From Phycisphaerae bacterium (GTDB lineage: Bacteria; Planctomycetota; Phycisphaerae; UBA1845), in contig CAXXGO010000006.1 in assembly GCA_963666835.2 (NCBI GenBank), forward strand, positions 1,056,001-1,120,000: 64,000 nucleotides of DNA. The letters run 5' to 3'. The translations under genes were made by a program, and so were the position numbers. Position 1 is the stretch's first letter. Each line of letters begins with the position of its first letter. Shown here one piece after another: positions 6,590 to 23,480 of this stretch. The notes beneath the pieces were generated by a model. It had not been told where the DNA came from. It did not search any database and saw only the letters and a program-made list of their open reading frames with translations.

Positions 6590-6595
6590 ATCGCA

Positions 6596-6692
6596 GATAC
6601 GGTCGGCAGTCGCTTTGACGGTCGACCACAGTTACTGCATTCGTGCCACCTCGCGGCACCGAGCGGGTTGATCCGTTCGGTGCCGCGGGTGG
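6596..6692 (+). repeat. Cassette-boundary element, copy 1
   Basis: Hairpin 6646-6692: CCACC-t-CGCGGCACCGAGCGG-gttgat-CCGTTCGGTGCCGCG-GGTGG. Confidence 0.9.
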
Positions 6693-6695
6693 TTT

Positions 6696-8510
6696 GTGGT
6701 TCGCGCATTCACGTACGATCGCGAGCGGGTCATGGCCGCAGCGGGATCGTTGTTCTATTGGTGGAAGTACACCGGCAAGCAGACTCGGGTCGGGCCGGAT
6801 GGGGCGGAGACTGTCACGCAGCTCGACGCGGCCGGGCGGGTTGAGTCGGTTTTGCGGCGGCGGGCAGACACCGGCGCGACGCTGCTGAATGCCGAGTATT
6901 CGTACTATGCCAACGGGCAGCTTCGCCGGGTCGATTATGCCAACAGCGCGGCCGTCGAGTACGCGTACGACGCGGCCGGGCGGATTACGGCGATCAATCA
7001 CCTGAACGCCGCCGGTCAGATCATGTTGCGGCTGAATTACGAATACGATCCGTATGACGTCCGCGGGCTGCCGATTATGATCACGGAAGAACAAGACACG
7101 CTGGCCGGCACGGTGACGACGGCCGTGACGACGTTTGAGTATGACGGGCTGGGACGGCTGAAACACGAGACGCGGGTTGGCGATCCGGCGTCGTCCTATG
7201 ATCTGGCGTACACCCACGACGCGGGTGGGAATCGGCTGAGCACGATCGACGAGGTGAACCACGTCGAGACGGTGTATCATTACGACGTCGAGGACGAGGC
7301 GGAGTACGTCTACGACAGCTTCAATAACCGTTTGATGTATTTCGAGACGTTCGATACGAGCGGTGCCGAGGCTGAGCTGGTCTCGACCACGTACTACTTC
7401 TACAACGATTACGGGAACGTCACGCGGAAGGTGACGGAGTTGGCGGACCCCGAGCCGGGCGAGAAGAAGTATCGTTCGACGTATCTCAAGTACGCGACGA
7501 ACGGGCACGCCGTGACGTATCTCGTGGGCGAGGAGTGGACCTATCCGGAGTCGGATTATGCGGTGACGTTTGCCCGGGAGTTCTGGTATGATGGTGCCCG
7601 GCAAAGGTTCTTGAATCGCGAGTTTGATCCGGTCGCGTTGACGGGTGACAACATGGTCGTGCTATCCGAAACGTGGTCGGATTATGCGGGCGACAGCATC
7701 TATGCGGATTTCACGCTTAACGGGTCGACGTTGACCGTGCCGCGGATCTACGAGCCCGGTATCGGCAAGGTGGAAGACCCGTTTGGCACCTTCGATCGAG
7801 CGTACTACCACGCTGATCATATCGGCACGACGCGGCTGCTCGGCTGGAGCGACTTCTTCGAACCGCGCGACTCGGCCGTGTACACCGCCTTCGGTAGCTT
7901 GGTCACCGGCACAAACCACCGCTACGGCTACGCCGGCAAACACGGCTACCAGGCCCACGCCGAAACCCCCTTCCTCCACCTCGGAGCCCGCTACTACGAC
8001 CCGGACACGGGCCGGTTCTTGCAGCGGGATCCGATCGGGATATTCGGCGGACTGGATGTGTATGAGTATTGCTCCAGCAATCCGGTGGCCTCGATCGATC
8101 CGAGTGGAAACGGGAACTTCGGCAGCCTCAATGGCGATGCGCAGTATCGTAGTTGGCGTGAACAGGGTTACTCACCGTCCAGCGCCAGCAGGCAAATGGA
8201 ACGCATGGCACCCGATGAGTTCAAGGCCGGACTGATGGTCGGTGTAGGTCTCGGAACGGCCATGGCGGCGTGGTACGCGGCGCCTTACATCGCCAGCGCG
8301 GCAGCTGCTGCGCCAGGGGTCGTCGCCGGTGGTGCTCGGGCCGTCGCCAGCGGTGCTAGAGCGGCGGGCCCCGCTATCGCATGCGGCGCAAGGGCAGCTT
8401 GGCCGTATGTTCGACGAGCAGGAGCGTCGGGACTGAGTGAATTCTGGAAGGGGGCGGCCTGGACAGCCGGCGCGCTGGTGAGCGCCTATGCAGCGAGCCA
8501 GCTTCTTTAG
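6696..8510 (+). CDS. Orphan 5'-truncated Rhs core plus tip 2 (Ala/Gly-rich, hydrophobic)
   Basis: Starts at [10 protein letters not shown] (same point as ~3989 in the main gene); Rhs core signature and DPSG. Confidence 0.85.
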   Translation: MVRAFTYDRERVMAAAGSLFYWWKYTGKQTRVGPDGAETVTQLDAAGRVESVLRRRADTGATLLNAEYSYYANGQLRRVDYANSAAVEYAYDAAGRITAINHLNAAGQIMLRLNYEYDPYDVRGLPIMITEEQDTLAGTVTTAVTTFEYDGLGRLKHETRVGDPASSYDLAYTHDAGGNRLSTIDEVNHVETVYHYDVEDEAEYVYDSFNNRLMYFETFDTSGAEAELVSTTYYFYNDYGNVTRKVTELADPEPGEKKYRSTYLKYATNGHAVTYLVGEEWTYPESDYAVTFAREFWYDGARQRFLNREFDPVALTGDNMVVLSETWSDYAGDSIYADFTLNGSTLTVPRIYEPGIGKVEDPFGTFDRAYYHADHIGTTRLLGWSDFFEPRDSAVYTAFGSLVTGTNHRYGYAGKHGYQAHAETPFLHLGARYYDPDTGRFLQRDPIGIFGGLDVYEYCSSNPVASIDPSGNGNFGSLNGDAQYRSWREQGYSPSSASRQMERMAPDEFKAGLMVGVGLGTAMAAWYAAPYIASAAAAAPGVVAGGARAVASGARAAGPAIACGARAAWPYVRRAGASGLSEFWKGAAWTAGALVSAYAASQLL

Positions 8511-8541
8511 CAGGGTGGAAGCACGAAACGGAGAAACGCCA

Positions 8542-11188
8542 ATGAACAGTTGGTTCGTCCCGGGATGTGTTGCGGCGGTATTGCTATCTAGGCTGATTGG
8601 CGGGCGCCTATGTAAGCGGTTCGCCGATCGCATGTTCTCCACGGAGCTATCGCATTTTGGTGATGCTCGGGATAGGAAGGCAGCATTGGACAATGCGAAC
8701 CCGTTCAGCGCAAGCAAGTCCCTGTGGCGGTACCCGCTGCCCCTCGTGCAGGGGCTCGCCGCGGGGACGATCGCGACGCTTCTAGTCCTCCTGCTACGCA
8801 TTCCGAGCTCTGTCCCAGATGCACTTGCGTGGGGTTCGATCCTGTTTGTTATATTCGTTTTGACCATGTTGATTGAGCTATGGTCGGCCAGAAGGGCGAT
8901 CACTCGCGCGCTTCGCGAGCGACTGATTGCGGAGGGTACTATCGTTTGTCGTCGATGCGGCTACGATCTTCGCGGACAGATAGAGCAACGCTGCCCGGAG
9001 TGCGGGTGCGCCACGGAAAGCCTGGGAAAGGAGGATTGCGACATGGGTCCTTGATGACTGCATGAAACCTTTCGCCGGGACCCGGCAGGTATCCAATCCT
9101 GCCCGGCAAAGTAGACCGACAGCCGGAAGCGAGTCTTGCGTGGTGTACGGGTAACCTGCACTGCGAAGCGTAGACAGCGAGTGTGCAGGCCGTGTGATCG
9201 AGCCTCGAAAGAGGGCTATTCGTGGGAGCCGACGTCGTCCGCACTGTACGGAAGGCAGCATCGGATCGCCGCAATCGGTCTGGCGTATCCGATCCCACCG
9301 GGGTCTAAGAGCAGGGCATGTACACACGAGGGTCCCCCAGGAACGTGGGAGGTCCTGTCATCTCCACCCGGAACAAAGCGGCTTCGGGAGAGCCGGAGCC
9401 AATCTCCTGGCCCAGGGATCGGCGTCGGATTCCATGGGAGATACGAAGAGCCGGCGCTACGGGTGGTATTGCCAAGCGAAGGAAACGAAGTGCGGCGAAA
9501 CGGGTGGCAGGAAGTCGGAGTACCGAATAGTACCAAAGAACCGGGGGAATCCTACCCGTGGGAGACCCCGTGGAGGAAAGGCGGTACCGAATCATGGAAC
9601 CGTTAGAGGGACACACGCCGAACGCCCGGACGTTCGAGAGCGTGTCAACAAAACGACGGCGGATAGCGATGCGTGCGAAGCGAAGTCCGGAGATGAGCTT
9701 CACCACGTTAGCCCACCACATTGACTTAGCGTGGCTACGTTCTGCGTACGATCAGGTTCGCAAGGATGGAGCCCCCGGCGTCGACCGAGAGACGTCGGCC
9801 TCCTACGCAACGGATCTGAGGGCAAACCTCCAATCCCTGTTGGACCGTGCGAAGTCTGGGTTGTACAAAGCCCCGCCGGTGCGTCGGGTTCATATCCCGA
9901 AAGGCACCGGTGGCAAGACTCGGCCCATCGGCATTCCCACGTTCGAGGACAAGGTCCTGCAACGTGCGGTGGCGATGGTGCTGGAATCGATCTACGAGGA
10001 GGACTTTCTGGACTGCTCGTATGGCTTTCGCCCCGGACGCAGCGCCCATCAGGCGTTGGAGGCTTTGTACGAGCAGCAGAAAGCGACGCGGGCGGGGTGG
10101 ATTCTTGACGTGGATGTTCAGGGATTTTTCGATGCTCTGGATCATGCTCATCTTCGGGAGTTTCTCAAGCGACGGGTGCGAGATGGTGTACTGACACGAT
10201 TGATTGGTAAGTGGCTGAAAGCAGGCGTGCTGGAGGACGGACGGGTTACCCGCTCGACCACCGGCAGCCCGCAAGGGGGCGTGATCTCACCGATCCTGGC
10301 AAACGTCTATCTGCACTATGTGCTGGACGTTTGGTTTGAGCAGGAGGTGATCCCACGGCTCCACGGCCGGGCGTTTCTTATCCGCTATGCGGACGACTTC
10401 GTCATTGGGTTTTCCGATGAACGTGATGCCCATCGGGTGTTGGCGGTACTACCGAAGCGATTCAGTAAGTATGGCCTGACTGTTCATCCGGAGAAGACGC
10501 GATTGGTCCGGTTCAATCGGCCGAACGATCGCGACTCTACAGCCAAGGGCGATAGGCCGGAGTCGTTTGACTTTCTCGGCTTCACGCACCATTGGCGGAA
10601 GTCCTGGCGAGGGTACTGGGTTGTCTCTCGTAAGACGGCCTCTGATCGCCTGAGCCGCTCGCTCCGCAACATCTCGGCGTGGTGCCGTGACCATCGCCAC
10701 CTGAAGGTGCGCGAGCAGCATGCACGGCTCACGCAGAAGATACGCGGGCATTATGCCTACTACGGGATTACGGGTAATGGCAGTTCTCTGACAGCGTTCT
10801 GGGAGGGCGTCAAACGTGCGTGGCGGAAATGGCTTGGGCGAAGATCCCAACGCAGCTATTTCAACTGGGCAGCGTTTGTCCGCCTCATGGAGCGTTACCC
10901 GCTCCCCAAACCGGTCATCGTGCATTCAGTATACCACCGACAGCGAAACCAAGATTCGAGGAGCCGGATGCGGTAATTCCGCACGTCCGGATCTGTGGGG
11001 GGCCTGGGTGAGCAATCACCCAGGTCTACCCGACGAACGCGTTCGACATTCAGGCGATGATCGACAAGTCAGTTGAAGGGAAGACGGTGCTGGCGCCGGC
11101 GAGAGACGAAGAACAGTCGAGTGCCGATACAACCGATGGGCAAACAACGGGATCGAGTGACGGCTTGACGACCGACCATAGTGATTGA
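8542..11188 (+). CDS. Putative immunity membrane protein with C-terminal zinc ribbon, split by a group II intron (exons 8542-9005 and 11035-11188; 205 aa spliced)
   Basis: Spliced frame reads CRRCGYDLRGQIEQRCPECG-NAFDIQ..DHSD*; the paralog at 21576 reads CPECG-NPF. Confidence 0.85.
9006..11034 (+). mobile_element. Group II intron lacking an endonuclease domain
   Basis: 5' GTGCG at 9006; domain V GAGCCGGATGCG..CGCACGTCCGGATC near 10961; domain VI with bulged A (11028) ending AC at 11034; EBS1 CCGCACT (9239-9245) complementary to exon AGTGCGG (8999-9005). Confidence 0.93.
9558..10976 (+). CDS. ltrA: Group II intron reverse transcriptase/maturase (start may be ATG 9594)
   Basis: APGVD, RRVHIPK, RPIGIP, YGFRPGRS, GSPQGGVISP, RYADD, FDFLGF, X domain; no HNH domain. 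Confidence 0.95.
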   Translation: MGDPVEERRYRIMEPLEGHTPNARTFESVSTKRRRIAMRAKRSPEMSFTTLAHHIDLAWLRSAYDQVRKDGAPGVDRETSASYATDLRANLQSLLDRAKSGLYKAPPVRRVHIPKGTGGKTRPIGIPTFEDKVLQRAVAMVLESIYEEDFLDCSYGFRPGRSAHQALEALYEQQKATRAGWILDVDVQGFFDALDHAHLREFLKRRVRDGVLTRLIGKWLKAGVLEDGRVTRSTTGSPQGGVISPILANVYLHYVLDVWFEQEVIPRLHGRAFLIRYADDFVIGFSDERDAHRVLAVLPKRFSKYGLTVHPEKTRLVRFNRPNDRDSTAKGDRPESFDFLGFTHHWRKSWRGYWVVSRKTASDRLSRSLRNISAWCRDHRHLKVREQHARLTQKIRGHYAYYGITGNGSSLTAFWEGVKRAWRKWLGRRSQRSYFNWAAFVRLMERYPLPKPVIVHSVYHRQRNQDSRSRMR

Positions 11189-11242
11189 GTGAATGCCACC
11201 ACGCGGCACCGGGCGGGTTACTCCGTTCGGTGCCGCGGATGG
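11146..11242 (+). repeat. Cassette-boundary element, copy 2
   Basis: Hairpin 11196-11242, loop gttact. Confidence 0.9.
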
Positions 11243-12395
11243 TTTCGTGTGCTCCCCGCCGTACCAAGGAAGGGCTGGGGAGGTTCTGCCGGATGGACGG
11301 TCTATCGTCACTGCCGACACCGCGAAGGCGGGCGAGCGGGAGTACGCGGCCGTGCGGTTTGAGTACGCGGTTAACGGGACGGCGGTCAGCTTCGTCATGG
11401 GCGAGCGGTGGCGGTGGGATCCGGACGCGGGCGGGAATCCGACGGATTTTGAGATTACATACGCGCGCGAGTTTCGGTATGATGGAGCTCGGCAGAGGTA
11501 TCTGAATCGGCAGTTGGATCCCGCGGCCTTGCAGGAGTCCGGGCAGTTGGTCTCTTTGCGCGATACGTGGTCGGACTACTCCGGGGATTCGGTCTACGCC
11601 GACTACAGCTTCGACGGCGGCGCGCCGGAGGTGTCGCGGATCTACGAGCCCGGCGTCGGCATGTCGGTCGACCCCACGGCCGTGGCGGGCACGCGGTACT
11701 ACCACGCTGACCACCTGGGCACAACCCGGTTCACCTCGGACGGTGCCACCGGTGCGGTCGTGGACAGTTCGGCCTACGAGGCCTTAGGCGCCCCAATCGA
11801 CGGGGCGAACCACCGCTACGGCTACGCCGGTGCCTACGGCTACCAGTCGCACGACATCGATGAAGTAGCCGCCCTCGACCCCCCACTAGACCCGGCCACC
11901 GCCTTCCCCTTCCTCCACGTAGGAGCCCGCTACTACGACCCGGCGACGGGACGGTTCCTGCAGAGGGATCCGATTGGGATCGCTGGGGGGTTGAATGTCT
12001 ATGCGTATGTATACAACAACCCGGTGTTACGAACTGACCCAAGTGGAAACGGCTTCTGGGATGGAAACAACGCGTTTCACGATTGGATCGCACGGAAGTT
12101 CTGGATGCACCCAATCAACCCAGCCAAGAGTCGGCTCCCGAAAATGGGAGATGCCGAGGCCTGCGCCTGGGTGGCCGGCTACACGGCCGTTGGCACTGTG
12201 GCGTTGTACCGTGGCGGAAAGTATCTAGCACGGTTTGCTCGGATACACCACGGTCCGTTTAAGGGGCATATGGGAGGCGCGTGGCACTTCCACATCGGTC
12301 GAAGAGCTGGCGAACTAGGGCGTTATCATCTTCCACAACAGTTTCGCGGATGGTGGGGCAACCTGAAGAGCATCTTACGGCGTAAATGGAGGTAA
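11193..12395 (+). CDS. Orphan Rhs fragment of a second core type plus His-rich tip 3; Rhs homology starts ~11280
   Basis: Core EYAAVRFEYAVNG..ERWRWDPDAGG differs from the main gene; [16 protein letters not shown] and DPSG. Confidence 0.8.
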   Translation: MPPRGTGRVTPFGAADGFVCSPPYQGRAGEVLPDGRSIVTADTAKAGEREYAAVRFEYAVNGTAVSFVMGERWRWDPDAGGNPTDFEITYAREFRYDGARQRYLNRQLDPAALQESGQLVSLRDTWSDYSGDSVYADYSFDGGAPEVSRIYEPGVGMSVDPTAVAGTRYYHADHLGTTRFTSDGATGAVVDSSAYEALGAPIDGANHRYGYAGAYGYQSHDIDEVAALDPPLDPATAFPFLHVGARYYDPATGRFLQRDPIGIAGGLNVYAYVYNNPVLRTDPSGNGFWDGNNAFHDWIARKFWMHPINPAKSRLPKMGDAEACAWVAGYTAVGTVALYRGGKYLARFARIHHGPFKGHMGGAWHFHIGRRAGELGRYHLPQQFRGWWGNLKSILRRKWR

Positions 12396-12396
12396 T

Positions 12397-12897
12397 ATGT
12401 CTGCAATACTCGAACAGTATGAAACCTGCTGCGCGCCTGGCGTCACGGAGAGCGTCATGGGTGACGATCAGCTTATCGGTCATGTAATTGATGCGCTTGA
12501 CAGTAGTCTTCTGTTCCAATCTGTTGTAGTTGTGCGTGGTAAGTTCCTTCGAAACGCGAAACATCTTGGGCTTGACAGGCATGTGACACTGCTGTACAGC
12601 GATAACCGGGAGTATCTTCGGCACTACAAGACGGCGTTGGTGGCTGCAAGCTCCTCGCAAGGACATTGCAACATCCTGTATGCGCCGACACGTATGGACA
12701 CGTTCTGGGGAACTTTGGTAGAGAGGGGCTGCATCCAATCTCAGAATTGGCAGCCCTTGGGCGAAGAAGAGGCACGAGAGGTACTTGGTGCCGACGGGCT
12801 GGCATCACTGATTGACACGGTTGAACCGCTGTGTCCGAATGGCTGGCTTACGTTTTGGCATGACGCGCAACACGTCGTCAAGTGTACATACGTATGA
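12397..12897 (+). CDS. Putative soluble immunity protein for tip 3
   Basis: Starts 1 bp after the toxin stop with a GGAGG RBS; no TM segment; lower GC. Confidence 0.75.
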   Translation: MSAILEQYETCCAPGVTESVMGDDQLIGHVIDALDSSLLFQSVVVVRGKFLRNAKHLGLDRHVTLLYSDNREYLRHYKTALVAASSSQGHCNILYAPTRMDTFWGTLVERGCIQSQNWQPLGEEEAREVLGADGLASLIDTVEPLCPNGWLTFWHDAQHVVKCTYV

Positions 12898-12903
12898 GTC
12901 GGA

Positions 12904-13000
12904 AAAGGGGTCGGGAGTCGTTCTGACGCCCGACGACGATGATTGAATGATTGCCACCACGCGGCACCGGGCGGGTTGATCCGTTCGGTGCCGCGGGTGG
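12904..13000 (+). repeat. Cassette-boundary element, copy 3
   Basis: aaaGGGGTCgggagtCGTTCTGAC, hairpin 12954-13000. Confidence 0.9.
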
Positions 13001-13003
13001 TTT

Positions 13004-14764
13004 GTGGTTCGCACATTCACGTACGACCGTGAGCGTGTTCAAGTGCCGGGCGGGCCAACGCACTGGCAGAGATACACCGGCAAGCAGACTCGGGTCGGGC
13101 CGGACGGGACGGAGACTATCACGCAACTCGACGCGGCCGGGCGGGTTGAGTCGGCTTTGCGGCGGCGGGTGGACAATGGCGGAGCGTTGCTTCGGGCCGA
13201 GTATTCGTATTATGCCAACGGGCAGCTTCGCCAGGTTCGATTCAGTAACGACGCGACGGTCGAATACAGCTACGACGCGGCCGGTCGGATCACGGCAATC
13301 ACGCACCGCGACTACCTCGATTACATCATGTTGCGGCTGAGTTATGAATACAATCCGCACGACGCTCGTGGACTGCCGACCAGGATCACGGAGGAAGAAG
13401 ATACGCTGTACGGTCGGGTGACCAAGGCCGTGACGACGTTTCGCTACGACGGACCGGGCCGGCTGGTCCGTGAGACGCGGGTGGCGAATCCGTTATCGTC
13501 GTATGACTTGGTTTACACGTACGACCTGGGCGGGAATCGGCTGAGCACGATCCACGAGGCGAACGAGGTCGAGACGGTTTATCATTACGACGTCGAGGAC
13601 GAGGCGCAGTATGTCTACGGCAGTGCCAATAACCGGCTGATGTACTTCGAGACGTTCGACACGAGCGCGTACGGGCACGAGCTCGTCTCGACGACGTATT
13701 ATTACTACAACAACTACGGCAACATCACGCGGAAGGTGACGCAGCTTGCGGATCCGGAGCCCGGGGAACGGGAGTATCATGCCACGTACCTGAAGTACGC
13801 GACGAACGGGGAAACCGTAACGTATCTGCTGGGCGAGGAGTGGGATTGGAACGGGAATCCACTCGCCGAGGTCACGAATTATACCGTGACGTTTGCCCGG
13901 GAGTTTTGGTATGATGGCGCCCGGCAAAGGTTCTTGAATCGCGAGTTTGATCCGGTCGAATTGACGGGTGACAACATGGTGGTGCTGTCCGAAACTTGGT
14001 CGGATTATGCGGGCGACAACATCTACGCGGATTTCACGCTTAATGGGTCGACCGTGACCGTGCCGTGGATCTATGAGCCGGGTATCGGCCGGGTTGGCAA
14101 CCCGTTCGGCGACATGGCGGATTGGGACACGGGCTACTACCACGCGGACCACATCGGTACAACCCGCCTGCTGAGCGACAACGACGGCCTGCCGAAAGAC
14201 GATTCAGTGTACACTGCCTTCGGTAGCCTGGTCGGGGGCACGAACCACCGCTACGGCTACGCCGGCAAACACGGCTACCAAGCCCACGCCGACACCCCTT
14301 TCCTCCACGTCGGAGCCCGCTACTACGACCCGGACGTGGGGCGGTTCCTGCAGCGGGATCCGATTGGGATTGATGGGGGCCGAAACGTGTACGCCTATGC
14401 GCACTCGTCACCCACACTAGCCGTTGACCCGTCCGGGCTGAAGATTTGGACGGAGGTGAAGGGTAAGCGACGCAAGGCCACCAAGGACGGCTGGCAGAAC
14501 CAGCAGCACCAGTTTAGCTACGACGATCACGATGCAGGGATGGCGTCTATTGCCGCAGGCGCGGCAGCAGTTGTGTTCGGTGCGGCGGCCCTCGCCTTCC
14601 CAGAGCCGGCGATAACGAAGTACGCTGGCACGTTGGCCCTGGCAGAAGGTGTCGGTGGATTAGCCTGCGCCGCGTATGCCTTCAACCCCGAAGTCATCAG
14701 GGACGAATGGGTTGATATCGGCCCGCTCGTTCCGTACAAGCCGGGGGAACGCCCACAGTTGTAG
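13004..14764 (+). CDS. Orphan Rhs core plus tip 4
   Basis: Starts [10 protein letters not shown]; core nearly identical to the main gene; DPSG then a tip with hydrophobic helices. Confidence 0.85.
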   Translation: MVRTFTYDRERVQVPGGPTHWQRYTGKQTRVGPDGTETITQLDAAGRVESALRRRVDNGGALLRAEYSYYANGQLRQVRFSNDATVEYSYDAAGRITAITHRDYLDYIMLRLSYEYNPHDARGLPTRITEEEDTLYGRVTKAVTTFRYDGPGRLVRETRVANPLSSYDLVYTYDLGGNRLSTIHEANEVETVYHYDVEDEAQYVYGSANNRLMYFETFDTSAYGHELVSTTYYYYNNYGNITRKVTQLADPEPGEREYHATYLKYATNGETVTYLLGEEWDWNGNPLAEVTNYTVTFAREFWYDGARQRFLNREFDPVELTGDNMVVLSETWSDYAGDNIYADFTLNGSTVTVPWIYEPGIGRVGNPFGDMADWDTGYYHADHIGTTRLLSDNDGLPKDDSVYTAFGSLVGGTNHRYGYAGKHGYQAHADTPFLHVGARYYDPDVGRFLQRDPIGIDGGRNVYAYAHSSPTLAVDPSGLKIWTEVKGKRRKATKDGWQNQQHQFSYDDHDAGMASIAAGAAAVVFGAAALAFPEPAITKYAGTLALAEGVGGLACAAYAFNPEVIRDEWVDIGPLVPYKPGERPQL

Positions 14765-14833
14765 ACTTCTGCACGCAATACCGGAGTCATCGGGAAACAA
14801 CGTCCGTGCCTCACAAAGAAGGAGCCGGTCTTT

Positions 14834-14998
14834 ATGAATTGGACGTACGGAAGAAAGCTGTGCGTTGTAGCGATTGTCCTTAGCCTACTCGGGATCTTGA
14901 TGGGTTCAGTGGCAATCTGTTCGCGGAGTCCGATTTCGCCAAGTTCGATGTCGCAAGGCAGACCGGCGTTGCCGCAGCAAAACGCGCCTGTTCCCTGA
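14834..14998 (+). CDS. Small 54-aa single-TM ORF, not in the ORF track
   Basis: AAGGAG upstream; MNWTYGRKLCVVAIVLSLLGILMGSVAICS.. Confidence 0.4.
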   Translation: MNWTYGRKLCVVAIVLSLLGILMGSVAICSRSPISPSSMSQGRPALPQQNAPVP

Positions 14999-15008: not shown

Positions 15009-15644
15009 GTGTGCAGAGCCTGCGAAGTCGGCATCGACGGGAAAAGCACAGGAACACAGCCTGTCGAGGCGAGTAGGCGCGCGCGTTGTGGAGCCACGCC
15101 CGTTCGAATTGGAATCGGGCAGGCCTGTGCAGACTGTCACAGTGGCGGTGTCGTCCTGGTCGGGCTGCGAGAAGCCGCCGGGCGCGGCGCGCGTACGCGC
15201 ATTGTGGGGATCGGCATGTTTGCGATTGCTGTGCTGGTCATCTGCCTGACAGTGGGTGTCGTTGCGTGGGTCGTCGGCGTGCTCCTTGCGACGTATACGT
15301 CGTGGAACGCGTCGACAAGGACAGTCGTGAACTTCCTCGTGGTAACGCCTATACTTGGCGGACTCCTGGCATCTGCGACTGGGGCACTTCCCGTACGCGT
15401 GGTAATGTGCCCGCACTGCAGGCGTATCAGGCGATTGGGGTTTGGGAAACGGGTGCCCACGGAATGGCAGCATATTGTGGAACCGACAGGCTTCTGCATG
15501 GCTTGCGGATATTCACTCCGTGGAATTACTGAGCAGCCGAGGTGTCCAGAGTGCGGGGATCCGTTTCCGAAGGAGTGGCTGAAGATCACCCGTCAAGCGG
15601 ATGAGGAGCCCTCGGTCGAGTATGACGTTGTTGCGAAGGAGTGA
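15009..15644 (+). CDS. Putative immunity membrane protein with zinc ribbon (start uncertain)
   Basis: 2 TM segments, CPHC, CMACGYSLRG..CPECG. Confidence 0.7.
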   Translation: MCRACEVGIDGKSTGTQPVEASRRARCGATPVRIGIGQACADCHSGGVVLVGLREAAGRGARTRIVGIGMFAIAVLVICLTVGVVAWVVGVLLATYTSWNASTRTVVNFLVVTPILGGLLASATGALPVRVVMCPHCRRIRRLGFGKRVPTEWQHIVEPTGFCMACGYSLRGITEQPRCPECGDPFPKEWLKITRQADEEPSVEYDVVAKE

Positions 15645-15684
15645 AGGAGCAGACACAGGGGTTGGGAGTCTCTGTTGGGCGAAT

Positions 15685-15779
15685 GACGGAGTCGAGGGTC
15701 TTTTCGACGGCCGATCACAGTGATTGCCTTAGTGCCACCTCGCGGCACCGGGCGGGTTGCTCCGTTCGGTGCCGCGGGT
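15685..15779 (+). repeat. Cassette-boundary element, copy 4, fused to an internal Rhs position
   Basis: Hairpin 15735-15779; right arm joins Rhs RVGDPASS via shared CGCGGGT. Confidence 0.85.
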
Positions 15780-17052
15780 TGGCGATCCGGCGTCGTCGTT
15801 TGATCTGGCGTACACGCACGACGCGGGCGGGAATCGGCTGAGCACGATCGACGAGGTGAACCACGTCGAGACGGTGTACCATTACGACGTCGAGGACGAG
15901 CCGGAGTACGTCTACGACAGCTTCAATAACCGGCTGATGTATTTCGAGACGTTCGATACCAGCGGTGCCGAGGCTGAGCTGGTCTCGACGACGTACTACT
16001 TCTACAACGACTACGGGAACGTCACGCGGAAGGTGACGGAGTTGGCGGACCCCGAGCCGGGCGAGAAGAGGTATCGTTCGACGTATCTCAAGTACGCGAC
16101 GAACGGGCACGCGGTGACGTATCTGGTGGGCGAGGAGTGGACCTATCCGGAGTCGGATTATGCGGTGACGTTCGCCCGGGAGTTCTGGTATGATGGTGCC
16201 CGGCAGCGATTCTTGAATCGCGAGCTTGATCCGGTTGCGCTAACGGATGGCATTGTGGATGTGGAATCAGAAACCTGGTCGGACTATGTAGGCGACAGCA
16301 TCTACGCCGACTTCACGTTTGATGGGTCGACCGTGACCGTGCCGCGGATCTACGAGCCGGGCATGGGGAAGGTGGACGGCTTATCTGTCGGTGGCGCGGC
16401 TTACTACCACGCCGATCACATCGGCACGACCCGTCTGCTGAGCGGGTACAACGGCAGCGCGGACGATGAGTCAGTATACAGCGCCTTCGGAGGTCTGGTG
16501 TCCGGCACAAACCACCGCTACGGCTACGCCGGCAAACACGGCTACCAGTCCCACGCCGACACCCCCTTCCTCCACGTCGGAGCCCGCTACTACGACCCGG
16601 CAACGGGGCGGTTTCTGCAGAGGGATCCGATTGGGATTGATGGGGGGTTGAATGTGTATGTGTATGCACTAAACAACCCCGCGTTGCAGGTCGATCCTTC
16701 TGGGCTACACTGGGCGATTGATGGGCAGCCGCAGCATCATCTTCCCGATATCGATGGGCACGGGATTACTCCTCCTCCTGCGCCTTCGGTACGTCCGCCT
16801 CAGCCATTGGTTCCAACACCCGTTCCCTATGCGGATGACTGTGTAATGACTTGTGTCCGAATATACCTAACCCCATTGCTATACTGTAAGCCAGCGTCCT
16901 TCGGTCAGATTGGAAGGCACGAAGATAACCAAGACAACTGTGAAGACCTGGGTGGCACCTGGGGCTTCTACTCAGACGAAGACCCGACTTTCACGTGGAT
17001 CGGCCATAAACTCATCAGGAGGCGTGGTAGGCCAAGCCGTGGTGGTGTTTGA
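15757..17052 (+). CDS. Orphan Rhs core (further deleted) plus Pro/Cys-rich tip 5
   Basis: Rhs core signature and DPSG; PPPAPSVRPPQP linker; four Cys in the tip. Confidence 0.8.
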   Translation: MLRSVPRVGDPASSFDLAYTHDAGGNRLSTIDEVNHVETVYHYDVEDEPEYVYDSFNNRLMYFETFDTSGAEAELVSTTYYFYNDYGNVTRKVTELADPEPGEKRYRSTYLKYATNGHAVTYLVGEEWTYPESDYAVTFAREFWYDGARQRFLNRELDPVALTDGIVDVESETWSDYVGDSIYADFTFDGSTVTVPRIYEPGMGKVDGLSVGGAAYYHADHIGTTRLLSGYNGSADDESVYSAFGGLVSGTNHRYGYAGKHGYQSHADTPFLHVGARYYDPATGRFLQRDPIGIDGGLNVYVYALNNPALQVDPSGLHWAIDGQPQHHLPDIDGHGITPPPAPSVRPPQPLVPTPVPYADDCVMTCVRIYLTPLLYCKPASFGQIGRHEDNQDNCEDLGGTWGFYSDEDPTFTWIGHKLIRRRGRPSRGGV

Positions 17053-17531
17053 TCGACAGTACGTCTTATAATGAAGCGATAATCGGAGAAGCGGGTGAAG
17101 GTCCTTCGTCGCGCGGAGTCATGCCCGCAATAACGATCCATCTTATCGAGGAGCATGGGAAGCCGATGTATCAGGAGAGAACTCACGAGTGGATCGCGCG
17201 AGTGTTTGGAGCTGTGTTCGTGTTTCTTCTGGTAGGCGTTCTTGCTTTCGATCTGCTAAGCAGATTGCATATAGCCGACCACCAGTGGCGACTGCCTGGC
17301 ATGCTGTTTCTTGCCGGTAGTGCGGGACTGGGTGCCTCGTTAATCGTCATTCGAATCACCCGACGAGCACGGCCGACGCCACCTGGGCGATGTCGCAAGT
17401 GCGGGTATATTCTATTCGGGGCTCCGGGACCCAACTGTCCGGAATGTGGGACGCCTTTTACTGTCTCGGGCACCGAGGGCAAGATGACGAATAACGGGGT
17501 CGGGAGTCGTTCTGACGGCGGATCGGAGTGA
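17049..17531 (+). CDS. Putative immunity membrane protein with zinc ribbon (start may be ~17167)
   Basis: 2 TM segments then CRKCGYILFG..CPECG. Confidence 0.75.
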   Translation: MIDSTSYNEAIIGEAGEGPSSRGVMPAITIHLIEEHGKPMYQERTHEWIARVFGAVFVFLLVGVLAFDLLSRLHIADHQWRLPGMLFLAGSAGLGASLIVIRITRRARPTPPGRCRKCGYILFGAPGPNCPECGTPFTVSGTEGKMTNNGVGSRSDGGSE

Positions 17532-17589
17532 TTGAATAGGTGCCACTACGCGGCACCGGGCGGGTTAGTCCGTTCGGTGCCGCGGGTGG
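17493..17589 (+). repeat. Cassette-boundary element, copy 5
   Basis: aacGGGGTCgggagtCGTTCTGAC, hairpin 17543-17589. Confidence 0.9.
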
Positions 17590-18994
17590 TTTGTGGGTCG
17601 CGCATTCACGTACGGCCGCGAGCGTGTTCAAGTCTCCGGTGGGCCAACGTATCGGCACAGGTACACCGTTGAGCACACTCGGGTCAAGCTCGCTGGGACG
17701 GCTGAAACACGAGGCGCGGGTTGGCGATCCGGCATCGTCGTATGATCTGGCGTACACCCACGACGCGGGCGGGAATCGGCTGAGCACGATCGACGAGGTG
17801 AACGAGGTCGAGACGGTTTATCATTACGACGTCGAGGACGAGGCGCAGTATGTCTACGGCAGTGCCAATAACCGGCTGATGTACTTCGAGACGTTCGACA
17901 CGAGCGCGTACGGGCACGAGCTCGTCTCGACGACGTATTATTACTACAACGACTACGGCAACATCACGCGGAAGGTGACGCAGCTCGCGAATCCGGAGCC
18001 CGGGGAGCGGGAGTATCACGCGACGTACCTGAAGTACGCAACGAACGGGCAGGCCGTGACGTATCTGCTGGGCGAGGAGTGGGATTGGAACGGGAATCCC
18101 TACTCCGAGGTCTACAATTATACGGTGACGTTCGCCCGGGAGTTCTGGTATGATGGTGCCCGGCAACGGTTCTTGAATCGCGAGTTTGATCCGGTCGCGT
18201 TGACGGGTGACAACAGGGTGGTGCTATCCGAAACCTGGTCGGATTATGCGGGCGACAGCATCTACGCGGATTTCACGCGTAATGGGTCGACCGTGACCGT
18301 GGCACGGATCCACGAGCCGGGGATCGGGAAGATGGAGACTCCGTTTGACGTTCCTGAGTCGGCCTACTACCACGCCGACCACATCGGCACGACCCGTCTG
18401 CTCGGCTGGAGCGACTTCTTCGAACCGCGCGACCCGGCCGTGTACACCGCCTTCGGTAGCTTGGTCACCGGCACAAACCACCGCTACGGCTACGCCGGCA
18501 AACACGGCTACCAGGCCCACGCCGAACCCCCCTTCCTCCACCTCGGAGCCCGCTACTACGACCCGGACACGGGCCGGTTCTTGCAGCGGGATCCGATCGG
18601 GATTCGCGGGGGGGGGAATGTGTATGTATATGTGAACAACCACCCGAGTGCAGCCTTCGATCCTGATGGGCTCAGGAGTATCTACGACGATTGGAGTCCA
18701 CTGCCGTTTGGGCCAAGAGACGAGGCGGAGATCGAAGGGACTCAGCGAGGCACTGGAGTAGCGCTTGCATGCTTCGCAACCGCAGCTGTGGCAGCGGTTG
18801 CCGTGGAAGCTGGCGTTCCCGCAGCCGTTGCTGGTGCAGGCCGTATTGCTGCGAGGACGGGAGGAAGATGGGCCTGGAAGGCTGGCGTATGGGTTTGGCA
18901 AACGCAGGCGAAGCTCGAGAAAGTGATCGCCAAGAACCCGGGGAAGTCCGGGCTAGTTGCGTGGATGATTAAGGAGATCTACGAGCGGCTTTGA
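17540..18994 (+). CDS. Orphan Rhs core (internal deletion near 17690) plus hydrophobic tip 6
   Basis: RAFTYGRERV start in one frame, jump to LGRLKHE in this frame; DPDG. Confidence 0.8.
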   Translation: MPLRGTGRVSPFGAAGGLWVAHSRTAASVFKSPVGQRIGTGTPLSTLGSSSLGRLKHEARVGDPASSYDLAYTHDAGGNRLSTIDEVNEVETVYHYDVEDEAQYVYGSANNRLMYFETFDTSAYGHELVSTTYYYYNDYGNITRKVTQLANPEPGEREYHATYLKYATNGQAVTYLLGEEWDWNGNPYSEVYNYTVTFAREFWYDGARQRFLNREFDPVALTGDNRVVLSETWSDYAGDSIYADFTRNGSTVTVARIHEPGIGKMETPFDVPESAYYHADHIGTTRLLGWSDFFEPRDPAVYTAFGSLVTGTNHRYGYAGKHGYQAHAEPPFLHLGARYYDPDTGRFLQRDPIGIRGGGNVYVYVNNHPSAAFDPDGLRSIYDDWSPLPFGPRDEAEIEGTQRGTGVALACFATAAVAAVAVEAGVPAAVAGAGRIAARTGGRWAWKAGVWVWQTQAKLEKVIAKNPGKSGLVAWMIKEIYERL

Positions 18995-19281
18995 CGAGCG
19001 AGGTCCAGTGTGACAGTGCTTCTCGCTGTGGAATGGGGCCAATGCGAGCTGGAACACCGGTGTGGAATCAGCCGCCGCCTGTTGACGGCCCGAGGCTAAC
19101 GGGACAGGATAAGGACACTCAACCGTCCGCCGTGGCGGATGACCAAGGCACGGGCATGGCTAGCCCGCTGACGTGAGCAAGCTCAGCAGAGCTGATGGGT
19201 GTCCTTGTCCTGCCCAGACGAGAGTAGGATAGAGTGTGCTTCTAGCCGTGGCTCGCTCGTACGAAATGCGGGGAGAGTACA

Positions 19282-19545
19282 GTGACTCAGCACAGCAGAT
19301 TTTGGGTACTATCAAGGGCATTCGGTAGCCTTTCCATCTGCCTGGTGATTGACCTGCTGGTCTTTGAAATGGACTGGAAAACAGGTCGGGTAGACTGGGT
19401 GCCTTTCTTACGAGGCTGGGGGATCCTGTTCGGGGTCTTTGTCTTCTTTCTCCGAAAGCCCCTGTTTCATAAGGGTTGGAAGAGCCATCAGGAAGACGAG
19501 AACACTTGTGAACGCTGCGAACAGGAGGATAGGGAGACCCGATAA
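19282..19545 (+). CDS. Small putative immunity membrane protein for tip 6
   Basis: GGAGA upstream of GTG; two hydrophobic segments; CxxC near the end. Confidence 0.5.
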   Translation: MTQHSRFWVLSRAFGSLSICLVIDLLVFEMDWKTGRVDWVPFLRGWGILFGVFVFFLRKPLFHKGWKSHQEDENTCERCEQEDRETR

Positions 19546-19642
19546 CACGGCCGGAGGGATGACTAACGCTCGCGTGGATTAATCCGGCGAGACAGTGCAT
19601 CTTCTCGATCCTGCCGATCGGCCGGGACGATCCCAGGTCGCA

Positions 19643-19739
19643 AACGGGGTCGGGAGTTGTTCTGACGGCCGACCACGATGATTGAATGAGTGCCACCACG
19701 CGGCACCGGGCGGGTCAGTCCGTTCGGTGCCGCGGGTGG
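19643..19739 (+). repeat. Cassette-boundary element, copy 6
   Basis: Hairpin 19693-19739, loop gtcagt. Confidence 0.9.
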
Positions 19740-21551
19740 TTTGTGGGTCGCGCATTCACGTACGATCGTGAGCGTGTTCAGGTGTCGGGAGAGACAACGT
19801 ATTGGCACACGTACACCGGTAAGCAGACGCGGGTCGGGCCGGATGGGACGGAGACTGTCACGCAACTCGACGCGGCCGGGCGGGTTGAGTCGGTTTTGCG
19901 GCGGCGGGCAGACACCGGCGCGACGCTGCTTCAGGCCGAGTATTCCTACTTTGCCAACGGGCAGCTTCGCCGGGTCGATTATGCCAACAGCGCGGCCGTC
20001 GAGTACACGTACGACGCGGCCGGGCGGATTACGGCGATCAATCACCTGAACGCCGCCGGCGGCATCATGTTGCGGCTGAGTTATGAATACAATCCGCACG
20101 ACGTGCGTGGGCTGCCCACCGTTATCACTGAGGAGGTGGACACCGGAATCAGGGCCGAAACGAGGCTCTATTACGACGGGCTGGGGCGGCTGGCTCGCGA
20201 GAAGCGTACGCCGGGGGATAAGATCAACCCGTGGTACGATCTGAGGTACACCTACGACTTAGGCGGGAATCGTCTGACCGCGGTCGACGAGGCCAACGAC
20301 GTCGAGACGGTGTATCATTACGACGTCGAGGACGATCCGCAGTGCGTCTACGGCAGCGCCAACAACCGGCTGATGTACTTCGAGACGTTCAAGACGGCCA
20401 CCGGTCACTACTTAGTCTCGACAACGTATTATTACTACAACAACTACGGCAACATCACACGGAAGGTGACGCAGCTTGCGAATCCGGAGCCCGGGGAGCG
20501 GGAGTATCACGCGACGTATCTGAAGTACGCGACGAACGGGGAAACAGTAACGTATCTGCTGGGCAAGGAGTGGGATTGGAACGGGTACACCGCCTCCGAA
20601 GTCACGAATTATGCCGTGACTTTCGGCCGGGAGTTCTGGTATGATGGAGCCCGGCAGCGGTTCCTGAATCGCGAGTTTGATCCGGTCGCGTTGACGGGTG
20701 ACAACATGGTCGTGCTATCCGAAACCTGGTCGGATTATGCCGGCGACAGCATCTACGCGGATTTCACGCTTAATGGGTCGACGTTGACCGTGCCGCGGAT
20801 CTACGAGCCCGGTATCGGCAAGGTGGAAGACCCGTTTGGCGTCCTCGATCGAGCGCACTCCCACACCGACCACATCGGTACAACCCGCCTGCTGAGCGAC
20901 AACGAGGGCCTGTCGAAAGACGAGTCCCTCTACACCGCGTTCGGTAGCTTGGTATCCGGCACAAACCACCGCTACGGCTACGCCGGCAAACACGGCTACC
21001 AATCCCACGCCGACACCCCCTTCCTCCACGTCGGAGCCCGTTACTACGACCCGGATACGGGTCGGTTCCTGCAGCGGGATCCGATTGGGATTATGGGCGG
21101 GGTAAATGTGTATGAGTATTGCTCCAGCAATCCGGTGGCCTCGATCGATCCGAGTGGCACCTGGAACCATGGCACTCACCAGGGCAATGCGCAGTATAAG
21201 AGCTGGCGTGAACAGGGTCATTCGCCGTCCAGCGCTAGCAGGCAAATGGAACGCATGGCACCCGATGAGTTCAAGACCGGACTGATGGTCGGTGTAGGTC
21301 TCGGAACGGCCATGGCGGCGTGGTACGCGGCGCCTTACGTCGCCAGCGCGGCCGCTGCTACGCCAGGGGTTGTCGCAAGTGGTGCTAGAGCAGCGGGCCC
21401 CGCTATCGCATGCGGCGCAAGGGCAGCTTGGCCATATGTTCGACGAGCAGGAGCGTCAGCAGGGGGCAAGTTCTGGGATGGCTACTGGGGGACGCTAGGA
21501 AAGGCTGCGGCTCTCGGCACCGCGGGCTGGCTGATCTCCAAGTTACTGTAG
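19686..21551 (+). CDS. Orphan Rhs core plus tip 7 (paralog of tip 2)
   Basis: Rhs core; tip shares SWREQG..MAPDEFK.GLMVGVGLGTAMAAWYAAPY with tip 2. Confidence 0.85.
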   Translation: MSATTRHRAGQSVRCRGWFVGRAFTYDRERVQVSGETTYWHTYTGKQTRVGPDGTETVTQLDAAGRVESVLRRRADTGATLLQAEYSYFANGQLRRVDYANSAAVEYTYDAAGRITAINHLNAAGGIMLRLSYEYNPHDVRGLPTVITEEVDTGIRAETRLYYDGLGRLAREKRTPGDKINPWYDLRYTYDLGGNRLTAVDEANDVETVYHYDVEDDPQCVYGSANNRLMYFETFKTATGHYLVSTTYYYYNNYGNITRKVTQLANPEPGEREYHATYLKYATNGETVTYLLGKEWDWNGYTASEVTNYAVTFGREFWYDGARQRFLNREFDPVALTGDNMVVLSETWSDYAGDSIYADFTLNGSTLTVPRIYEPGIGKVEDPFGVLDRAHSHTDHIGTTRLLSDNEGLSKDESLYTAFGSLVSGTNHRYGYAGKHGYQSHADTPFLHVGARYYDPDTGRFLQRDPIGIMGGVNVYEYCSSNPVASIDPSGTWNHGTHQGNAQYKSWREQGHSPSSASRQMERMAPDEFKTGLMVGVGLGTAMAAWYAAPYVASAAAATPGVVASGARAAGPAIACGARAAWPYVRRAGASAGGKFWDGYWGTLGKAAALGTAGWLISKLL

Positions 21552-21575
21552 CGGGCGAGCAACTAGGACGGAGGT

Positions 21576-22172
21576 ATGCGGATGTTCTCTTTCTCCTTTG
21601 CGGCTCTTGTTTCGGTGGGTGTCGCAACGACGCTTCTGTCTGGACTGATCGGTGGGCGACTACGTGTTGCATTGGCATCTCGTATGTTCGCCATGGAGCT
21701 ACAGCATTACGACGGCGCCGCCGGGAACATCGCCTTGGAGCAAGCATTCCCTTTTACCAGGAAGCGGTATGTGTGGAAGGTGCCCCTGCCTTTCATTCAC
21801 GGCGTTGCCTCCATGACTGCGGCCATGATATTGGTGTTCGTCTTGCCGATTCCCGAGGATATACCAGATGTGTATGTCTTGGGGTTCTTTGTAGTCATTA
21901 TTGACGTGTTGATCATGTTGGTTGAGTTGCACTTGGCTAGGATAGCGATCATTCGTGTGCTTCGCGAGCGACTGATTGCGGAGGGTACTATCGTCTGTCG
22001 TCGATGCGGCTACGATCTTCGCGGACAGATAGAGCAACGCTGCCCGGAGTGCGGGAACCCGTTTTCCCTGACGCCGGAGAACGCGTCGACCCGCGGACAA
22101 AGCGGGCCCCCGCCTATGGAAGACACAAGGCAGACAAAGGGAGGCGTTTCCCGGGACGACCATTGCCATTGA
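21576..22172 (+). CDS. Putative immunity membrane protein with zinc ribbon (paralog of 8542)
   Basis: GGAGG RBS; 3 TM segments; LRERLIAEGTIVCRRCGYDLRGQIEQRCPECG. Confidence 0.8.
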   Translation: MRMFSFSFAALVSVGVATTLLSGLIGGRLRVALASRMFAMELQHYDGAAGNIALEQAFPFTRKRYVWKVPLPFIHGVASMTAAMILVFVLPIPEDIPDVYVLGFFVVIIDVLIMLVELHLARIAIIRVLRERLIAEGTIVCRRCGYDLRGQIEQRCPECGNPFSLTPENASTRGQSGPPPMEDTRQTKGGVSRDDHCH

Positions 22173-22224
22173 TTCAGGGTCACCATGCGGCACCGAGCGG
22201 GTTGATCCGTTCGGTGCCGCGTGG
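22136..22224 (+). repeat. Cassette-boundary element, copy 7 (diverged, not followed by Rhs)
   Basis: TGCGGCACCGAGCGG-gttgat-CCGTTCGGTGCCGCG at ~22186-22221. Confidence 0.8.
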
Positions 22225-22735
22225 GCCGTTCTACGGCGTTTGCTGCGCGGCATTTGCAATAGAGCCCACGTGCCAGGGAGGCATAGCGGGGCGGAGGCAT
22301 CCATACCGGCAATACAAGAAGGCGGAGGAGCGATTGATGAGAAGTACGAGGTTCAGCGGTTGTGCAGCGGCCATTTCGGTATTGGCCGCGTCGGCGTCGG
22401 TCGCGGTGGCCAGCGTTGATAGCGTTCTGCTTAGCCCTAAATTAGTTTTAACGTCGGGGTCTCCATGTCAGTGTCCGTTGCCAAACAGAGGATGCGCCAG
22501 AACCGATACGCGGTGATTCTCGGCTGTGCTGCGGATTACGGCATGCGTCAGATGACGGTCGAGGCGATCAAACTGGAGTGGTGGTTTCGCTCGCATCGGT
22601 TCAATCTGCGCCCTTACGCAATCTTCTGATGTTGAACGGGCGGGTCGACGTGATTGCGTTGAGGTTGGTGAAGGTATTCGACAGTTCGATCGTATTCAGA
22701 GGTGATGGGGCAGTAGAGGAGTTGTTCCTGATCTC

Positions 22736-23374
22736 ATGATAGTGCTTCTACGTAGCCATCTGTTGACCGCGGAGCAAACGTTGCTCAGGGGCTTCGTTTT
22801 TGCGTTCTGCGCCAACATCGTTATGCGCCTTGTGCTGGTTGTGGGAACGGCGCCGGACACCGGAGGAATAGTCTGCTATTTCATTCTCTTTGCAGCGTTC
22901 GTTGGTATTCCCGTCACATATATTGCGAAACGGACGACGACGCTACGAACGCTACAGTTTGTCATCGTGTACGTTTTGAGTCTCGTGTTAATCCAGCAGT
23001 TCAGCAACTGGGGCAACGTCATATGGGGAGGCTACGTGGATGCGCCGTTGCCTGGTTTCGGCCGAAGTGGGACGTTGCCTTTGTTCATTATTACGCCGAC
23101 GGCCATCCCGCTTTGCTTTTTGAGTTGCTTGCTTTATTGGGTAGCCAGCCGGTACCGGTGGGGGCCGGTGGTAATCCAGGATGGAACGATGTGCCCGCAA
23201 TGCGGCTACAACATCCTCGGCGCCGTTGACCGAATCTGTTCCGAATGTGGGCGGGAGTTCACATACCAGGAACTCGGTACGACGAAGCAGGGATTTTCGG
23301 CATCCGTGGGCGCGTCTGAGACCGCGCCTTTACCGGGTTGTGCAAGAACGGACGATGAGGCGCCGGAGTCCTGA
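22736..23374 (+). CDS. Orphan immunity-like membrane protein with zinc ribbon
   Basis: GAGGAG upstream; ~4 TM segments; CPQCGYNILG..CSECG. Confidence 0.75.
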   Translation: MIVLLRSHLLTAEQTLLRGFVFAFCANIVMRLVLVVGTAPDTGGIVCYFILFAAFVGIPVTYIAKRTTTLRTLQFVIVYVLSLVLIQQFSNWGNVIWGGYVDAPLPGFGRSGTLPLFIITPTAIPLCFLSCLLYWVASRYRWGPVVIQDGTMCPQCGYNILGAVDRICSECGREFTYQELGTTKQGFSASVGASETAPLPGCARTDDEAPES

Positions 23375-23382
23375 GGCCGAAC

Positions 23383-23480
23383 AACGGGGATCTGACGTCC
23401 TTTTGCCGGCCGACCACAGTCATTGCATTCGTGCTACCTTGCGGCACCGGGCGGGTTGCTCCGTTCGGTGCCGCGGGTGG
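23383..23480 (+). repeat. Cassette-boundary element, copy 8
   Basis: Hairpin 23434-23480, loop gttgct. Confidence 0.9.

Follow-up and report, generated by a model that had tools for sequence, protein, structure and literature searches.

What lies between the successive modules of an Rhs toxin array, and how did it come to stand there? The question is raised by a 64,000-nucleotide stretch of a Phycisphaerae bacterium genome (assembly GCA_963666835.2, contig CAXXGO010000006.1, positions 1,056,001 to 1,120,000; hereafter the window), in which a main rhs gene and an immunity-like open reading frame (ORF) are followed by eight modules, each preceded by the same element of about 100 bp, here termed the linker. 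An earlier note had described this locus as an integron-like cassette array punctuated by a bulged hairpin. The linker is a lineage-specific composite of a TIRtron left end (a terminal inverted repeat, TIR, and a TTGAC box, together ~25 bp), a ~30-bp spacer, a bulged hairpin of 22 bp and a short T tail. With moderate confidence, we favour an account in which the linker was seeded by a TIRYT transposase, spread by ordinary recombination and was kept as an RNA hairpin.

Within the window the linker forms one family of 103-nt repeats with eight copies, and a 15-nt core of the right hairpin arm recurs without mismatch at 6673, 11223, 12981, 15762, 17570, 19720, 22207 and 23461, always on the + strand, confirming the eight hairpins of the earlier note. 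The copies are as follows.

6594..6696, + strand: linker copy 1; TIR with 3 mismatches; hairpin at 6645-6693
11144..11246, + strand: linker copy 2; TIR with 4 mismatches
12902..13004, + strand: linker copy 3; perfect TIR
15683..15785, + strand: linker copy 4; TIR with 3 mismatches, directly preceded by a second TIR-like copy; fusion to Rhs at the right foot
17491..17593, + strand: linker copy 5; perfect TIR
19641..19743, + strand: linker copy 6; TIR with 1 mismatch
22128..22230, + strand: linker copy 7; TIR lost, outer stem altered
23382..23484, + strand: linker copy 8; TIR with 4 mismatches

The fusion of copy 4 to Rhs falls on 7 nt that are identical to the hairpin's own right arm. The GGGGTC motif previously noted upstream of every hairpin is the TIR, and it matches GGGGTCGGGAGTC at 0-1 mismatch in three of the eight copies; it carries 3-4 mismatches in four, and copy 7 has lost it. 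Five of the eight copies have right arms that are 100% identical, while TIR and spacer are just 44-90% identical between copies.

Across the genome, a covariance model of the hairpin, trained on the same 17 copies that had been found beforehand, returned exactly 17 copies, with a gap in score from 59.5 to 16.8 bits. Fifteen of these lie at module joints of three arrays of the polymorphic-toxin type, all on the sense strand, with eight in the window, three in a second array (C5:176000-195300) and four in a third (C6:2236000-2263500). The main gene and orphans of the second array end in HExxH motifs (a weak metallopeptidase match), and the third contains Cys-rich orphans and a deiminase module; the two main genes share ~1.3 kb at the 5' end, and no Rhs homology was detected in either array. 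In the three arrays the linker follows immunity-like genes at their 3' end. It stands ahead of all 13 orphan fragments that are homologous to a main gene, and two other long ORFs in array 3 are without it. Of the two remaining copies, one has around it an Rhs remnant, ORFs for small membrane proteins and another, partial copy, and for the other a clear array context is lacking. Arrays 2 and 3 share a further ~40 nt past the T tail. Because 15 of the 17 copies are found at array joints, all in the sense orientation, the linker is array-specific and not a general gene-end repeat; the covariance search that had been proposed, run on this genome and 100 relatives, gave no distribution over ordinary gene ends, the outcome that was to refute the capture idea. 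The alternative raised at that time, that a single terminator-Rhs junction had been copied by duplication, is too narrow, as it cannot place the element in two arrays that are not Rhs.

A model match of 16.8 bits, present in five copies, was considered as a linker and rejected, as it falls within the non-coding end of an insertion sequence whose five insertion sites are not linkers. This near-identical 1.8-kb insertion sequence (C1:1128874-1130703 and four other places) has a 560-nt non-coding end 3' of its transposase, and we take it, by eye on its protein, to be IS110-like. The second and third arrays have in common an N-terminal anchor, a Cys-rich stalk, and HExxH and deiminase C-termini, mostly without Pfam names, and arrays of the second type have relatives in 26 of 100 family genomes.

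The left part of the linker belongs to a described class of element. Di Nocera et al. (PMC3733652) name such elements TIRtrons, with the TIR consensus GGGGWSAS, and Quentin et al. (PMC6006769) place them in subclass 2.1 and found no structure of the repetitive extragenic palindromic (REP) type beside them. The linker TIR lies close to this consensus and matches the TIRs flanking Y1 transposase genes both in the window's genome (C1:1181375) and at loci L067/L230 and L066. Similarity of the linker to the TIRtron left ends of the window's genome (G000), G104 and G053 extends for 24-29 nt, takes in the TTGAC box of the transposase promoter and goes no further. GGGGTCGGGAGTC occurs exactly in 39 genome copies and at up to one mismatch in 62, of which 30 are in inward-facing pairs and 32 solitary. 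One inward-facing pair flanks a Y1 transposase gene (TIR at C1:1181375, gene at C1:1181457) with an open frame and the motifs NHWH and YVEQN, and this gene is predicted to encode the cognate TIRYT in intact form. A second TIRtron (C6:1415429-1416400) carries stacked partial copies of its own left end, each starting at its left TIR, an arrangement that fits one-ended copying from TIRs.

At the joints themselves the TIR is frequently worn. It is clear in four of the 15 array copies, degenerate in four and lost in seven, and it is missing at its place in six of the seven copies of arrays 2 and 3. In the window, the TIR starts 10-13 nt after the upstream stop codon in three copies, within the upstream ORF in three, and 44 and 101 nt after the stop in the other two. 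Conservation begins at the TIR tip, beside more than 10 unrelated upstream genes. The arrays do not hold whole TIRtrons, each linker having a single TIR in direct orientation with no inverted pair, and no Y1 transposase was present in or beside the arrays among the ORFs scanned. Derivation of the hairpin from the 5' end of a transposase was considered and rejected, with no similarity past the TTGAC box (p 0.11-0.96), and no hairpin of the linker kind lies beside the Y1 genes of the genome.

The hairpin comprises 22 pairs and one bulge, and 95% of cells pair over all 17 genomic copies. Top-strand folding of copies 3 and 6 gave z scores of -6.8 and -4.7, with none of 200 shuffles as good, and the top strand was more stable than the bottom in 17 of 17 copies folded as RNA and 16 of 17 folded as DNA. 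One-sided changes at Watson-Crick pairs were G.T-compatible on the top strand in 17 cells and on the bottom in 4 over the 17 copies (p=0.004). The earlier claim that such changes are compatible with the top strand only therefore describes a tendency and not an exclusive rule, the window cells standing at 4 vs 1, and strand-specific folding of the hairpin is likely but not proven. No excess of C>T was seen in the flanking Rhs sequence (49 C>T on 225 C vs 57 G>A on 260 G). The stem and its sense-strand position fit an intrinsic terminator, and five of the eight window copies pass a lax terminator scan, with a tail of only TTTG; in most copies conservation stops at this tail. Conservation of the hairpin exceeds that of the neighbouring TIR and of most coding windows in Rhs. 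Because the TIR has decayed or been lost in most copies while the hairpin is conserved, the hairpin rather than the TIR appears to be the part that is kept. A greater variability of the left arm than the right was rejected (27/373 vs 21/374 cells). No working promoter was recognised in the linker, which has no conserved -10 and contains none of 11 promoter-like hits, and an Rfam scan of window positions 1-28000 gave no family at the linker, a group II intron being the only match. Nor does the element resemble GTAG/CGTC-tagged REPs, as there are 17 copies, 15 of them in arrays, and the stem foot reads GTGC, ATGC or TTGC.

The linkers separate the following features of the Rhs array.

1644..1753, + strand: leader and first codons of the main gene; 76% identical across 110 bp to the leaders at C5:195243 and C6:2236305
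1721..5752, + strand: main rhs gene with a hydrophobic N-terminal segment, YD repeats, core and variable C-terminus (Pfam RHS_repeat, TIGR03696)
5825..6589, + strand: putative immunity-like membrane protein gene of the main toxin; an ORF with no Pfam or NCBIfam match, its function suggested by position
6701..8510, + strand: orphan Rhs fragment and C-terminus 1; 81% to the main gene from 3988; TIGR03696
8488..11188, + strand: immunity-like gene 1, interrupted by an intron; paralog of 21576-22172 (89% over 151 bp); last exon enters linker copy 2 by 39 nt
9006..11034, + strand: group II intron with a reverse transcriptase (RT)/maturase ORF at 9558-10976 (Rfam RF02005 and RF00029; TIGR04416 above cut-off); borders taken from the intron-free paralog
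11244..12897, + strand: orphan 2 (second Rhs subtype, 5'-deleted) and immunity-like gene 12397-12897
13009..15644, + strand: orphan 3 and immunity-like gene 15009-15644
15773..17531, + strand: orphan 4 and immunity-like gene 17049-17531, which runs 35 nt into linker copy 5
17598..19545, + strand: orphan 5 (internal deletion) and candidate immunity ORF 19282-19545
19748..22172, + strand: orphan 6 and immunity-like gene 21576-22172, which runs 39 nt into linker copy 7; akin to module 1
22231..23374, + strand: module 7, without Rhs homology, then an immunity-like membrane protein at 22736-23374
23489..24400, + strand: orphan 8; has the standard junction, passes by an internal deletion to the second Rhs subtype and is truncated ahead of a C-terminal domain

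This layout is that of an Rhs orphan array, with a main gene of YD repeats and core followed by modules of 5'-truncated core, a different C-terminus and a small ORF. Seven of the eight modules open with an Rhs fragment, and TIGR03696 was found in six of these seven. No toxin or immunity domain was recognised in the window proteins by Pfam or NCBIfam, so the roles assigned to the modules are drawn from their position and from the layout known for Rhs loci. As had been reported, five linker copies (1, 3, 5, 6 and 8) enter the same Rhs breakpoint and the main gene is without the element there. Copies 2 and 7 had been described as preceding non-matching cargo. Module 7 has no Rhs homology; copy 2 precedes a second Rhs subtype, which also occurs inside module 8 (91% identity over 660 bp). 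The modules behind copies 2 and 4 are read as probable deletion products of ordinary modules. The group II intron in immunity-like gene 1 had been overlooked. Its insertion site is uninterrupted in the paralog, and it is treated as an incidental insertion; alongside the full-length intron, two 5' partial copies are found at C6:567389 and C7:26541. The main rhs gene is split by a single in-frame stop at 3011-3013, a mutation or an assembly error, beyond which the frame goes on. The 110-bp leader is common to the main genes of all three arrays, a profile search giving only three strong hits in the genome, and is possibly a shared regulatory element. It contains two predicted hairpins, and parts of it resemble the bases just 3' of the linker hairpin; alignments of those bases with the leader were better than shuffles in 1/8 and 3/6 cases, and the Rhs core explains the window junction equally well.

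Recombination within the array could be read from the Rhs fragments themselves. Their nearest neighbours switch repeatedly along their length; the fragment behind copy 1, for example, is 94-98% like that of copy 6 at 4088-4287, 95-98% like copy 4 at 4488-4887 and 99% like copy 5 at 5188. These mosaics place crossovers inside Rhs homology. Upstream of two linkers in array 3 lies a common stretch of ~250 bp, the tail of an older module, which puts the join there well to the left of the linker. An outcome named beforehand as refuting the capture idea, cassette breakpoints inside Rhs homology rather than at the element, was thus partly realised. Contigs from four of seven listed sequencing runs (at most two studies) were also compared, as single contigs at 90% likeness that cannot place a crossover and that drop rare forms. 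A contig of run X3 passes from the end of the Rhs core (5372) through unknown DNA to the hairpin (12952) and is read as a module absent from this assembly, and run X4 gave a chimeric core contig. Record 17 of X4 is a 1261-bp contig at a depth far above its neighbours, with a chimeric Rhs piece (17787-18040, 4781-5021) behind 766 bp of other DNA. The excised circles that had been suggested did not appear, since no linker-to-linker circle and no exact crossover at the linker was seen among the listed matches of these contigs.

This Rhs type occurs in 51 of 100 genomes of the family. A model search over these 100 genomes, in which the best 50 candidates per genome were scored, found no such hairpin in any of them, and the fetched Rhs loci that were scanned have none either; seven single matches reached 22-27 bits, of which two are U-tailed terminators sharing the inner stem core and the others are generic. 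Linker DNA compared with 40 relatives gave only one weak 26-nt match. The exact linker pattern was absent from metagenome contigs and occurred at six single places in GTDB contigs from unrelated taxa, each of which lacks both the outer stem and the TIR, in sets from which records near this genome may be left out. An Rhs-based metagenome search gave one locus, which is unrelated.

The joints of the relatives were also compared for TIRs, with 79 regions yielding 67 callable orphan junctions in 26 genomes. A search expression for the TIR, written after the junctions had been viewed, matched seven junctions in sense and one in antisense, compared with 16 matches in 1012 control windows and, at ordinary gene ends of the window's genome, 64 in 3205 (2.0%). 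By genome, TIRs stood at joints in 5 of 26 against 1.3 expected (p=0.007), or in four genomes (p=0.036) when the doubtful G017 was dropped, and 21 of the 26 had none at any junction examined. In a hold-out of 40 further regions, 0/6 and 1/22 junctions matched, or 1/28 in all (G035, with two tandem TIRs), which is not significant. In G008, 5 of the 12 genome-wide matches of the junction motif fall in one 8-kb Rhs contig, and TIRtrons in G015 and G000 have this motif as their TIR. TIRs of each genome's own families were seen at Rhs joints, on the sense strand, in G008, G015, G053, G104 and G035. TIRs at joints are thus a recurring feature of a minority of genera, and in most relatives the arrays are built without a linker. 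Because most have no TIR, and none of the scanned loci has the hairpin, the linker is not needed to build such arrays. At L030, L031, L036 and L047, orphans of other genera start near the 'FTY' codons of the window junction without a hairpin, possibly a recurrent breakpoint.

In the account that we favour, the genome's TIRYT would have placed the linker at a joint by one-ended copying from a TIR, and the same copying probably carried it between arrays. The arrays would then grow and reshuffle through homologous recombination in the conserved core, a process directly visible in the Rhs array, with new toxin/immunity modules anchored on the core and fused illegitimately somewhere left of the hairpin. 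The hairpin, and not the TIR, would have been retained, most likely as an RNA structure of the sense strand (a weak terminator or 3' stabiliser) that may close each immunity message and damp read-through into the next toxin fragment. Several observations count against this account. The T tail is short; were termination strong, the immunity genes downstream would be silenced. At least 2-3 separate right-hand joins are required, together with more than 10 left-hand joins that spare the hairpin. Six of the eight immunity-like ORFs of the window stop no more than 13 nt before the TIR or enter it, which is tighter than random fusion suggests. No two-sided compensatory change exists in the 22 pairs over 17 copies, the covariation score being that of shuffles, and the G.T asymmetry, when counted by distinct changes, is only 8 vs 4 (p=0.19). 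G.T pairs would also fit a DNA hairpin read by a Y1 enzyme.

A somewhat doubtful rival is active capture by the TIRYT, in which the Y1 enzyme would nick the top strand at the tip of the TIR and attach the linker to the free 3' end of an incoming, core-anchored toxin/immunity strand. Such joining chemistry would resemble that of the IS200/IS605 transposases. The linker would be a dedicated, array-independent joint and the hairpin a strand-specific recognition element, which would account for the same linker in three arrays with different cores and for the tight fit of the TIR tip to the ends of more than 10 unrelated upstream genes, with three ORFs entering the linker and three stopping 10-13 nt before it. 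The stacked copies from a left TIR in the genome's TIRtron, the own-family TIRs at Rhs joints in other genera (7/67 junctions in sense; 5/26 genomes) and the strain contig that runs from the Rhs core end to the hairpin are likewise consistent with capture. Set against these, 11 of the 15 array copies have a decayed TIR or none, the pattern in other genera was chosen post hoc with one of its five genomes looking like chance and a hold-out of 1/28, and no Y1 gene of the genome has such a hairpin beside it, no circle or exact joint was seen, and no transposase of this kind lies in or beside the arrays. The earlier idea of a capture or shuffling site stands in so far as the element is array-specific, precedes every main-homologous orphan and carries the end of an HUH-transposase element, and falls short where crossovers lie in Rhs homology. 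A broader form, in which the TIRYT was co-opted as a trans-acting joining enzyme, the linker is a portable acceptor for unrelated toxin families and other genera do likewise with TIR families of their own, is slightly more doubtful still.

Three further explanations are less probable. The linker could be a neutral hitch-hiker, a selfish repeat of TIR and hairpin that landed once at a joint and was homogenised by duplication or gene conversion without function. The abundance of family TIRs in the genome, half of them solitary, the absence of the linker from 100 relatives and the lack of covariation all suit this idea, and we nevertheless consider it unlikely, as the hairpin is better conserved than the adjacent TIR and most Rhs coding windows, is retained at the start of all 13 main-homologous orphans across the three arrays and still pairs in 95% of cells. 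A site of a tyrosine recombinase, attC-like or dif-like and of the integron or rAID type, would explain folded sites in direct orientation between modules with one bulged base, in a genome with 14 tyrosine recombinase matches. It is very improbable and largely refuted: the best match to the integron integrase TIGR02249 scores 89.4 bits against a cut-off of 265 in a genome 92% complete, and the 52, 24 and 30 ORFs scanned in and around the arrays yielded no recombinase save an IS1595 transposase inside array 2, and no XerD-type recombinase at an array 5' end as in rAID-1. The consensus boxes of attC are RYYYAAC (R'') and GTTRRRY (R'), and no AAC faces GTT at the stem foot on either strand of the 17-copy alignment; moreover, the cassettes open with gene fragments and not whole genes. 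The array is not an integron, and the 'integron-like' label is not supported. Highly unlikely, too, is retro-capture, in which transcripts ending at the hairpin would be reverse-transcribed, for instance by the RT of the resident group II intron, and recombined into arrays with the right edge fixed at the T tail. Conservation does end at the T tail in most copies and the array holds an intact intron RT, but the intron is a single insertion inside a gene, and arrays 2 and 3 have no RT among the ORFs scanned and share ~40 nt past the T tail.

Several described systems come close to these arrays. Poole et al. 2011 (PMC3150448) describe orphan rhs-CT/immunity and cdiA-CT/cdiI arrays, with models of recombination in conserved sequence, and the present arrays are alike in having a main gene followed by modules of truncated core, variable C-terminus and immunity-like gene that are reshuffled by recombination. 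They differ in the fixed non-coding linker before every orphan, common to three arrays with different cores; no such site is named in the sections of that paper on orphan arrays. As in the TIRtrons (PMC3733652, PMC6006769), there is a TIR-flanked Y1 gene in the genome, doublet and solitary TIRs occur, and the left part of the linker is a TIRtron end, whereas here a single TIR of constant orientation is fused to a long hairpin within toxin arrays, with no partner TIR and no internal transposase. The main text of PMC3733652 contains no occurrence of 'rhs'. Kirchberger et al. 2017 (PMC5361080) put forward homology-facilitated illegitimate recombination for effector/immunity arrays, which likewise combines an anchor in conserved sequence with a non-homologous downstream join and no integrase shown; the model as set out there has no specific site, whereas here the joins cluster just left of one conserved hairpin. 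In rAID-1 of Bacteroidales (10.1101/471110), as in integrons, modules of conflict genes are parted by repeated intergenic sequences, but rAID-1 has a 5' XerD-like recombinase and whole immunity genes, while here no recombinase is adjacent and modules open with toxin-gene fragments. A subclass 2.1 Y1 transposase has also been proposed to diversify a gene family in the case of TnpA-REP beside prochlorosin genes (10.1101/2020.03.09.984088), and XerC/D next to polyimmunity loci is mentioned in PMC3482391, whose passages on these loci name no HUH enzyme. Full-text searching, with most subscription papers outside its reach, found no literature linking orphan arrays with TIRtrons.

Orphan arrays and TIRtrons have each been described already; what appears to be new here is their combination in a linker, which is real and array-specific. 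For the non-homologous downstream join of orphan modules, the papers above, in their sections on such arrays, appeal to recombination within conserved stretches or to illegitimate fusions that are rare, and report no dedicated site. In the present genome a single defined sequence of 100 bp stands at that join across three arrays. It bears the end of a transposase family without tested function, and an intact enzyme is encoded in the same genome. Were TIRYT co-option true, it would constitute a route of cassette capture without a tyrosine recombinase and the first function for TIRYTs. If the hairpin is only an RNA insulator, it would still be an unusual shared regulatory part of toxin arrays.

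Away from the array, window positions 1-298 hold a tandem 58-bp repeat in five copies with a REP-like palindrome led by GTAG, and three tandem TonB-dependent receptor genes lie behind an ABC substrate-binding gene at 52491-58647.

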